Below are positions 9,362-11,329 of a stretch of 64,000 bases of DNA, one piece after another (the stretch's first letter is position 1; each line of letters opens with the position of its first letter). The translations under genes were made by a program, and so were the position numbers. The DNA lies in assembly GCF_048403405.1 (NCBI RefSeq), contig NZ_CP183129.1. One strand, written 5' to 3'. Source of the DNA: Escherichia coli (GTDB lineage: Bacteria; Pseudomonadota; Gammaproteobacteria; Enterobacterales; Enterobacteriaceae). The notes beneath the pieces were generated by a model that did no database searches, was not told the origin of the DNA, and worked only from the letters and a program-made list of their open reading frames with translations.

Positions 9362-9603
9362 CTCAATCGCCAAAAAGAAAAAAGCCAGCAGATAATCACT
9401 GCTGGCGTGGCGATTAACACCAATACTCAGTCACACATGATGTCCGCAAATCAGTAGCCAGAATGACTCCCCTCCCACTGCATCAGTTCTTCAAGCATGG
9501 TTAATCGTTGTGGGACGCTTAACCAACGCAACCAGCACAACTTCGCTGTCGCGGTAAAATAGTGCTGATAAAACTGACGCATGGGGCACCTCCTTGCTTC
9601 ATC
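9362..9603 (-). ncRNA. sgrS: SgrS small RNA (glucose-phosphate stress; dual-function sRNA)
   Basis: Minus-strand transcript divergent from sgrR; contains the SgrT reading frame and ends in a ccagcagtgattatctgctgg hairpin plus U-run. 5' and 3' ends are estimates (±10 nt). Confidence 0.8.
9451..9582 (-). CDS. sgrT: SgrT, 43-aa peptide encoded within SgrS
   Basis: MRQFYQHYFTATAKLCWLRWLSVPQRLTMLEELMQWEGSHSGY is the C-terminal 43 codons of track ORF 9451..9750; the rest of that ORF is read-through of non-coding DNA. Confidence 0.7.
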   Translation of the reverse strand: MRQFYQHYFTATAKLCWLRWLSVPQRLTMLEELMQWEGSHSGY

Positions 9604-9670
9604 GTTAGGAATTATTGACTTAATATAGGGAAAATAAAATTGCTGTCTTTTGCGCAGGAGTTCCCCTTTT
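9604..9670. promoter_or_regulatory. sgrS / sgrR divergent promoter region
   Basis: Short intergenic segment between the sgrS 5' end and the sgrR start; SgrR binding here is established knowledge, site not mapped. Confidence 0.45.
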
Positions 9671-11329
9671 ATGCCATCTGCTCGTCTGCAACAACAGTTC
9701 ATCCGCCTGTGGCAATGCTGCGAGGGTAAATCGCAGGACACAACGCTCAACGAACTGGCAGCGTTATTGAGCTGCTCGCGTCGTCATATGCGTACCCTGC
9801 TCAACACCATGCAGGATCGCGGCTGGCTGACGTGGGAAGCGGAAGTCGGGCGCGGCAAACGCTCGCGTCTGACATTCCTCTATACCGGGCTGGCGCTTCA
9901 GCAACAGCGAGCAGAGGACCTGCTGGAGCAGGATCGTATCGATCAACTGGTGCAACTGGTTGGCGACAAAGCGGCTGTGCGGCAAATGTTGGTTTCTCAT
10001 CTGGGACGCAGCTTCCGCCAGGGGCGGCACATCCTGCGTGTGCTCTACTATCGTCCGTTGCGTAATCTGCTGCCCGGCAGTGCATTGCGTCGTTCCGAAA
10101 CCCATATCGCCCGGCAAATCTTCAGTTCGCTAACGCGCATAAATGAGGAAAATGGGGAACTGGAAGCGGACATAGCCCACCACTGGCAGCAAATATCACC
10201 GCTTCACTGGCGTTTCTTTTTGCGTCCAGGAGTCCATTTTCATCATGGTCGTGAACTGGAAATGGACGACGTGATCGCCTCTTTAAAACGAATCAATACG
10301 CTGCCGCTCTATTCGCATATTGCTGACATTGTGTCGCCGACGCCCTGGACGCTGGATATCCATCTCACGCAACCGGACCGCTGGTTACCGTTACTGCTGG
10401 GGCAAGTTCCGGCGATGATCCTGCCGCGCGAATGGGAAACCCTCAGCAACTTTGCCAGCCATCCCATCGGAACGGGTCCTTATGCGGTGATCCGCAACAG
10501 CAGCAATCAACTGAAAATTCAGGCATTCGACGACTTCTTCGGTTATCGGGCATTAATCGACGAAGTTAACGTCTGGGTCTTGCCGGAAATTGCTGATGAC
10601 CCCGCGGGAGGCCTGATGCTGAAAGGACCGCAAGACGAGGAAAAAGAGATTGAAAGCCGCCTTGAAGAAGGTTGTTACTATTTACTGTTCGACAGCCGTA
10701 CCCATCGCGGGGCGAATCAGCAAGTCAGAGACTGGATAAGCTATGTGCTTTCGCCGACCAATCTGGTTTATTTCGCCGAGGAACAGTACCAGCAGCTGTG
10801 GTTTCCGGCCTATGGGCTGCTTCCCCGTTGGCACCATACCCGCACCATAAAGAGCGAAAAACCGGCTGGTCTGGAAAGCCTCACCCTGACCTTTTATCAG
10901 GATCACAGTGAGCATAGGGTGATTGCCGGGATCATGCAGCAGATTCTGGCAAGTCACCAGGTCACGCTGGAAATCAAAGAGATCAGCTACGATCAGTGGC
11001 ATGAAGGAGAGATCGAGAGCGATATCTGGCTTAACAGCGCCAACTTTACGCTGCCGCTGGATTTTTCGCTGTTCGCGCACCTGTGCGAGGTGCCGCTGCT
11101 CCAACACTGTATTCCGATCGACTGGCAAGCCGACGCCGCCCGCTGGCGCAATGGCGAAATGAACCTGGCGAACTGGTGCCAGCAACTGGTCGCCAGCAAA
11201 GCAATGGTGCCGCTCATCCATCACTGGCTGATCATTCAGGGGCAACGCAGTATGCGCGGCCTGCGTATGAATACCCTCGGCTGGTTCGATTTTAAATCAG
11301 CGTGGTTTGCGCCGCCGGATCCAGAGTAG
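9671..11329 (+). CDS. sgrR: Transcriptional regulator SgrR (HTH plus solute-binding domain)
   Basis: ORF 9650..11329; start trimmed to [25 protein letters not shown]... (551 aa). Confidence 0.93.

Follow-up and report, generated by a model that had tools for sequence, protein, structure and literature searches.

An sgrS small RNA gene encoding the 43-residue SgrT, beneath a spurious 99-residue open reading frame in Escherichia coli

The locus between leuD and sgrR in the 64-kb window (the whole stretch of DNA analyzed here) was identified, with a probability of about 96%, as sgrS of Escherichia coli in its CFT073-type allele, a dual-function RNA within which the 43-residue SgrT is encoded, and the 99-residue open reading frame called over it is an artefact. 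In this analysis the assignment was based on matches to the RNA and peptide families, the anatomy of the locus, its pattern of conservation, complementarity to ptsG, and the lack of conservation of the upstream extension of the ORF. The SgrS/SgrT locus is already known as a textbook dual-function small RNA, and the allele is a common and previously described one. [quoted passage not shown] For the source strain itself, the transcription start, control by SgrR, and translation of SgrT would be expected by homology. The features of the locus are collected in Table 1.

Table 1. Features of the sgrR–sgrS locus in the window
Feature	Position	Strand	Details and source
SgrS small RNA gene	9377..9603	minus	227 nt; Rfam RF00534
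sgrT CDS	9451..9582	minus	43 codons plus TGA stop; Pfam PF15894, RefSeq
Shine-Dalgarno sequence of sgrT, GGAGG	9589..9593	minus	SgrS nt 11–15, 6 nt ahead of the ATG
Base-pairing (riboregulator) region	9415..9446	minus	SgrS nt 158–189; core at 9422..9436
Intrinsic terminator	9378..9406	minus	Terminator scan
Divergent sgrR–sgrS intergenic region with sgrS promoter	9604..9670		67 nt; conserved blocks
sgrR, transcription factor gene	9671..11329	plus	NCBIfam NF010149, RefSeq
99-aa mechanical ORF	9451..9750	minus	Mechanical ORF list
Upstream 56 codons of the ORF	9583..9750	minus	TTG start at 9750; not a gene

For identification of the RNA, the whole window was scanned against Rfam, as the earlier note had proposed. 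The interval 9603..9377 matched the SgrS model with 229.8 bits (gathering score 37, E = 1.3e-64), and the match ran untruncated over model positions 1–232, corresponding to a full-length SgrS. The 5′ end of the RNA, GATGAAGC, falls at position 9603, and the published length of E. coli SgrS is likewise 227 nt (PMC4021124). Over 327 nt around sgrS, the window was 100% identical to E. coli strain 7/2; this 327-nt region was matched in 5399 of 5426 complete E. coli genomes, and the locus was at least 95% identical in ∼2150 complete genomes. In gene order, leuD (8738..9343, plus strand) is followed by sgrS on the minus strand and then by sgrR on the plus strand, so that sgrS is divergent from sgrR and lies between it and leuD. 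This arrangement is kept in all 80 species loci of the comparative survey described below.

The final 43 residues of the 99-aa ORF are exactly MRQFYQHYFTATAKLCWLRWLSVPQRLTMLEELMQWEGSHSGY, with the SgrT ATG at 9582..9580 (SgrS nt 22) and the stop codon at 9453..9451. Pfam PF15894 (SgrT) matched this peptide with 49.6 bits against a cut-off of 27, residues 3–37 aligning to profile positions 1–36 of 46; the match was limited to the last 43 aa of the ORF, in agreement with the earlier claim that SgrT is the recognizable product and lies inside SgrS. A search of SgrT against NCBIfam returned only sub-threshold noise, e.g. PqqF, with no SgrT model above threshold. RefSeq places a 132-nt sgrT CDS at exactly this position in both strain 7/2 and K-12, and nothing longer. 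Comparison with characterized SgrT sequences, another check that had been suggested, likewise favored the short product: the exact 43-aa peptide occurs in public collections on at least 1000 contigs, under the name "glucose uptake inhibitor SgrT."

Selection on the peptide was examined by comparison with related sequences. The median dN/dS of SgrT versus the window allele was 0.21 (36 pairs), and the entropy at codon positions 1, 2, and 3 was 0.62, 0.57, and 1.10, respectively (40 aligned codons, 73 distinct CDS). Because dN/dS is low and variation falls mostly at third codon positions, the SgrT codons evolve as protein under purifying selection, with the overlapping constraint of RNA structure as a caveat. 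In K-12, an sgrS2 allele (ATG-to-TAA) has been built and SgrT-3xFLAG was seen on a western blot (PMC2760806). A Ribo-seq study of O157:H7 reported ribosomes covering SgrS and remarked on the Shine-Dalgarno sequence AAGGAGGT for EDL933 (PMC5331693); no initiation-site ribosome-profiling dataset reporting sgrT was found in the literature. SgrT has been described as a 43-aa protein, and its function and base-pairing by SgrS are independent of one another (PMC4021124; PMC12612679).

Only 4 nt separate the end of sgrT from the predicted ptsG-pairing segment (nt 158–189), the core of which, GTGTGACTGAGTATT (9436..9422; SgrS nt 168–182), was invariant or nearly so in 57 homologs. As ptsG lies outside the window, its leader was taken from strain 7/2, whose sgrS is identical. 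Duplex prediction was carried out with a 36-nt seed region and a 57-nt ptsG target, whereby SgrS nt 158–189 paired with ptsG mRNA positions −30 to +6 in a predicted duplex of −29.4 kcal/mol that takes in both the Shine-Dalgarno sequence and the start codon of ptsG. Shuffled seeds gave a mean of −14.9 ± 3.3 kcal/mol, and 1 of 1000 reached −29.4 kcal/mol. Prediction with full-length SgrS and a 140-nt ptsG leader was also attempted; it yielded an unrealistic, loop-filled duplex across both molecules and was discarded.

Downstream of the pairing segment, the stem-loop of the terminator spans 9384..9406 and has an 8-bp GC-rich stem, GCCAGCAG/CTGCTGGC, and a loop of 7 nt. A U6 run (9378..9383) comes next, and the terminator ends only 33 nt from the leuD stop codon. 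The terminator helix was paired in 99.3% of cells across the 57 homologs, and in 16 of these the loop-closing pair had changed from GC to AU on both sides. Hfq binding requires a poly-U tail (PMC9765468), and the terminator with its tail is a predicted Hfq-binding module. A base-pairing region and a terminator had been expected after sgrT, and both were found there, the one pairing with ptsG and the other intact. When the Rfam consensus structure was projected onto the 57 homologs, 76% of cells were paired, compared with 30–42% when the partners were slid. Covariation in a long-range helix between the LMQW codons and the region of the sgrT start was weak, mostly one-sided, and confounded with coding constraint.

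On the other side of sgrS, the NCBIfam SgrR equivalog model matched the divergent gene with 1125 bits over residues 1–550, with its ATG at 9671, and RefSeq gives sgrR the same coordinates in strain 7/2. The intergenic region, which carries the sgrR ribosome-binding site on the opposite strand, contains discrete blocks that were at least 90% conserved among 68 homologous intergenic regions, with variable spacers between them: CAATAAT (9611..9617, the −10 element), CCCTATATTA (9621..9630), and CAGCAATTT (9637..9645). A further conserved block, CGATGAAG, spans the transcription start site. Nearly all of the 61 homologous loci compared share a distance of 68 nt between the sgrR ATG and the 5′ end of the RNA. 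Discrete DNA blocks, variable spacers, and a fixed start spacing together form the pattern of a promoter and not that of codons; Horler and Vanderpool likewise used conservation of the −10 element to place the start sites of sgrS (PMC2760817). The conserved promoter blocks and the fixed spacing to sgrR suggest that sgrS would be induced by SgrR under glucose-phosphate stress, for which the experimental basis is in K-12 (PMC4021124).

The upstream part of the 99-aa ORF was then considered in its own right. Its first codon, at 9750, is TTG and not the ATG that the earlier note had given, this being the only error in that note; the first in-frame ATG is at 9702 and gives an 83-aa version, and the frame is open stop-to-stop from 9783. 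As the note had described, the ORF begins within sgrR on the opposite strand and crosses the sgrS promoter: the 56-codon extension is made up of 80 nt antisense to sgrR (9671..9750), for which the first 80 nt of sgrR serve as the antisense template, the whole 67-nt intergenic region, and 21 nt of the SgrS leader (9583..9603). For the N-terminal 56 aa, neither Pfam nor NCBIfam gave a match, neither the 99-aa nor the 83-aa sequence occurs among ∼15 billion predicted proteins, and RefSeq annotated the 99-aa ORF in 0 of 30 sampled records. No Shine-Dalgarno sequence precedes TTG 9750. On the minus strand between 9250 and 9850, the only promoter-like site was the sgrS promoter region, which lies downstream of TTG 9750, and none was found upstream of it. 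Mechanical ORFs of 99 aa or more number 120 in the 64-kb window, and for 66 of these a longer ORF in another frame covers most of the length, so that the length of this ORF is not above chance. The upstream 56 codons are a chance artefact: ahead of sgrT, its frame meets no stop codon in the leader, in the promoter, or opposite the first 27 codons of sgrR, and the ORF extends back to the TTG.

To compare the locus across the Enterobacteriaceae, 80 sgrR loci, one per species, were surveyed together with the window and K-12 (82 segments). An sgrS homolog divergent from sgrR was present in 82 of 82 segments and an SgrT homolog in 75. The seven segments lacking SgrT, from Atlantibacter (three), Yokenella, Pluralibacter, Phytobacter, and one Enterobacter, retain only the 3′ part of sgrS, as has been reported for some lineages (PMC4021124). 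In 58 of 74 SgrT-bearing loci, an in-frame stop codon occurs 13 codons or fewer upstream of the SgrT methionine, and the frame stays open for at least 50 codons upstream in only 12; the 99-aa reading frame is therefore not conserved in relatives. Relative to sgrR, SgrT lies in frame 0, 1, or 2 in 7, 44, and 23 loci, respectively, and its occurrence in all three frames shows that indels of lengths not divisible by three have built up in the stretch separating the two genes. All 12 long-open loci use a single frame, shared with the window, which is antisense to sgrR with third codon positions coinciding; for this reason codon periodicity in the overlap is not a discriminating test. Within Escherichia, the upstream frame was open in every genome examined, the open frame in K-12 and other Escherichia being accounted for by the near-identity of the sequences. 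The case against the extension consequently rests on other genera, on the missing translation signals, and on the lack of a family match.

The allele in the window differs from K-12 at a position relevant to SgrT output. SgrS nt 13 (9591) is A in the window and G in K-12, giving GGAGG in place of GGGGG, and the inverted repeat GGGGGTGCCCC of K-12 is broken in the window by A13 at the G13:C19 pair. The local hairpin was predicted at −6.0 kcal/mol for K-12 and −0.4 kcal/mol for the window allele. In K-12, genetic evidence shows that this hairpin inhibits sgrT translation, and G13:C19 is one of two pairs whose disruption raised SgrT output (PMC2760806). Clearer accessibility of the start was accordingly expected with A13. 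It was seen in the first 45 nt, where the opening energy was 10.2 kcal/mol with A13 and 13.2 kcal/mol with G13, but not in the full-length equilibrium fold. There, the sgrT AUG of the window allele had an unpaired probability of 0.05, the long-range helix pairing it in both alleles, and the opening energy of the ribosome footprint was 23.9 kcal/mol for the window versus 19.1 kcal/mol for K-12. Because the start codon is mostly paired in the full-length predicted fold, sgrT translation may be inefficient here, as in K-12. A higher SgrT output from the A13 allele goes no further than a plausible hypothesis, because the full-length fold pairs the AUG in both alleles.

Among complete E. coli genomes, a 61-mer with GGAGG was found exactly in 3348 of 5399, and the K-12 61-mer carrying the GGGGGTGCCCC hairpin in 1421 (26%). 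GAGGAGG is a common form of the Shine-Dalgarno sequence in other genera. The GGAGG form, which breaks the hairpin, was also seen in other Escherichia species and in most genera. Of the 80 other species loci, 76 carried setA, which the window lacks. The setA-less junction was shared by 2143 of the 5426 complete E. coli genomes (∼40%), with the same junction sequence in Escherichia albertii, Escherichia whittamii, and Escherichia sp. E1V33. It is tentatively suggested, at somewhat less than even odds, that K-12 is an exception within E. coli, that most E. coli make SgrT at physiologically meaningful levels, and that in genomes without setA read-through runs antisense into leuD. If this is true, read-through of the sgrS terminator in the ∼40% of genomes lacking setA would be antisense to leuD and would express no sugar exporter.

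Three other readings of the locus were weighed. That the 99-aa ORF, or its 83-aa version from ATG 9702, is real, an SgrT with an N-terminal extension made from an antisense transcript that begins inside sgrR, could draw on the frame being open from 9750 (stop-to-stop from 9783), in K-12 and four other Escherichia species as well as in the window. This openness is, however, explained by near-identity and by third codon positions shared with sgrR, and chance alone often produces ORFs this long. The start would be a TTG lacking a Shine-Dalgarno sequence, with no other promoter-like site upstream on the minus strand; the sequence has no family match and was found neither among the predicted proteins nor in the RefSeq records sampled. 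In most species (58 of 74) a stop codon interrupts the frame shortly before SgrT, with non-triplet indels shifting SgrT relative to sgrR, and the intergenic part is conserved as promoter blocks and not as codons. The probability left to an extended SgrT is negligible, the lowest of the three. Nearly as improbable is the view that sgrS is decaying or rearranged and possibly a non-functional RNA, its 3′ third having diverged from K-12 and setA having been deleted. Substitutions relative to K-12 are indeed concentrated in the final six codons of SgrT, in the spacers, and in the loop of the terminator, and setA is missing. Against this stand the high, full-length Rfam score, an invariant seed that pairs with ptsG, and an intact terminator stem whose tail, CTGGCTTTTTTC, is the commonest form among 61 homologs, that of K-12 being the unusual one. 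The same allele and junction, moreover, recur across E. coli (2143 of the 5426 complete genomes) and extend to further Escherichia species; the allele has been known as the CFT073 type since 2009 (PMC2760817).

A stronger contender, though still an unlikely one, is that SgrS acts here by base-pairing only, with sgrT retained and contributing little or nothing, as has been proposed for K-12 and for O157:H7, in which the start codon is lost. K-12 makes very little SgrT, and some lineages may no longer need it (PMC2760806; PMC4021124); in the predicted fold the AUG is paired and opening of the footprint is no cheaper than in K-12, by the values given above. The allele nevertheless keeps its ATG and a consensus Shine-Dalgarno sequence, GGAGG; the inhibitory hairpin of K-12 is broken at G13:C19, and A13 lowers the local opening energy by 3 kcal/mol. 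SgrT is, furthermore, under purifying selection across genera, and the exact peptide is widespread. The dual-function reading of the locus was preferred to all three.

By this dual-function reading, SgrR, encoded divergently 67 nt away, would activate the sgrS promoter under sugar-phosphate stress, and transcription from 9603 to the terminator at 9406..9378 would yield the 227-nt RNA. The 5′ two-thirds of SgrS would serve as the mRNA for the 43-aa SgrT, using GGAGG at 9593..9589 and the ATG at 9582, and SgrT would block glucose transport by PtsG. Together with Hfq, the 3′ third (9446..9415) would pair with the ribosome-binding site of ptsG mRNA and with other targets, leading to their repression. 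The dependence on SgrR, the transcription start, the dependence on Hfq, and the action of SgrT on PtsG were taken from the literature on K-12 and Salmonella, where SgrR-activated SgrS binds Hfq at its poly-U terminator and represses ptsG and other mRNAs (PMC4021124; PMC12612679; PMC9765468). SgrT of both K-12 and Salmonella inhibits glucose uptake through PtsG (PMC12612679), and by homology SgrT from the window would probably do the same.

The understanding of SgrS is unchanged by these results, and their value is mainly that of an annotation check: a naive ORF track labels the locus as a 99-aa protein and misses both the 227-nt regulatory RNA and the 43-aa SgrT. The inhibitory hairpin of K-12 and its sgrS–setA read-through operon are either not the majority form or not universal in E. 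coli, and the counts for hairpin and setA are relevant when results on K-12 SgrT are generalized.

Among known systems, the CFT073-type SgrS/SgrT has the same architecture and differs in nothing of substance, the window carrying that very allele, which was published in 2009 as 88% identical to K-12 (Horler and Vanderpool, PMC2760817). CFT073-type sgrS matches the K-12 gene at ∼88–91% identity, and the differences are found mainly in the 3′ third. The SgrS/SgrT of K-12 (RF00534; Wadler and Vanderpool 2007, 2009) is also 227 nt long with a 43-aa SgrT at the same position, and its seed CATCATGTGTGACTGAGTATTGGTGT and terminator stem are those of the window, from which its promoter region differs by a single base. 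Apart from nt 13, the two differ in SgrT by G32E and in the last six residues (EGSHSGY-type in the window, DDRNSES in K-12), in the spacers and the terminator loop, and in the U tract, which is U6-C-U5 in the window and U8 in K-12. In K-12, setA is co-transcribed with sgrS by read-through, whereas it is absent in the window.

The SgrS/SgrT of Salmonella is also dual-function and has the same seed; its SgrT, however, is 40 aa long with a different C terminus, its 239-nt RNA has an additional hairpin ahead of the terminator, and the locus includes setA. SgrS of O157:H7 combines a CFT073-type backbone with the Shine-Dalgarno sequence AAGGAGGT, like the window (PMC5331693; PMC2760817), but ATT replaces the sgrT ATG in O157:H7, whereas the window retains the ATG.

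In the window setA is missing: the sgrS terminator is followed, after only 33 nt (9344..9376), by the stop codon of the convergent leuD. In K-12, setA comes after sgrS and is expressed by read-through of the sgrS terminator; at the window locus, any such read-through would be antisense to leuD. A search of 5426 complete E. coli genomes recovered this setA-less junction in 2143, and it is shared by E. albertii, E. whittamii and Escherichia sp. E1V33. Across the sgrR loci of 80 other species, setA is retained in 76.

Within sgrS itself, the window carries an A at nucleotide 13 of the RNA (position 9591), where K-12 has a G. 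The A creates a consensus GGAGG Shine-Dalgarno sequence for sgrT and disrupts the translation-inhibiting hairpin of K-12. Full-length folding was equivocal as to whether SgrT output would be higher as a result. Most E. coli carry the A form: among 5399 genomes, 3348 have an exact match to its 61-mer and 1421 to that of K-12.

Shortened sgrS genes that keep the seed and terminator were found in seven species, belonging to Phytobacter, Enterobacter (sp. ENT03), Yokenella, Atlantibacter (three) and Pluralibacter (loci L024, L033, L054, L066, L067, L070 and L077), and sgrT was not detectable in any of these seven. A typical Enterobacteriaceae sgrR-sgrS-setA-leuD locus, with an SgrR 80% identical, was seen in CACSKA010000010.1 (L032), whose title names Chryseobacterium sp. 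18061; that assembly is probably mislabelled or contaminated.

The PGAP annotations of the RefSeq records for strain 7/2 and K-12 include the sgrT coding sequence and the nearby TPP riboswitch. An SgrS ncRNA feature is absent from both, so that neither record shows that the locus also works as an RNA. For the divergent sgrR, the mechanically called reading frame begins at TTG 9650 and is seven codons too long at its 5' end (9650..9670); both RefSeq and the match to the SgrR family place the start at ATG 9671. Downstream of sgrR, the gap to the TPP riboswitch of thiB is 33 nt in K-12 and 1050 nt in the window (11330..12379, 42% GC). The 189-aa ORF within it had no match in Pfam or NCBIfam.

Features in the sgrR–thiB interval and other Rfam matches in the window
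Feature	Coordinates	Strand	Evidence
Leucine operon leader	4469..4618		Rfam match above threshold
189-aa ORF	11570..12139	-	Named T3SS effector EspY2 by RefSeq in strain 7/2
TPP riboswitch, upstream of thiB	12380..12479		Rfam match above threshold
ES003 sRNA	58281..58333		Rfam match above threshold; every position agrees with the consensus

The form of the terminator tail matters because poly-U length influences the binding of Hfq (PMC9765468). The window tail, CTGGCTTTTTTC (U6 followed by C; 9377..9383), is the most frequent form among 61 homologs; the unbroken U8 tail of K-12 is the unusual one.
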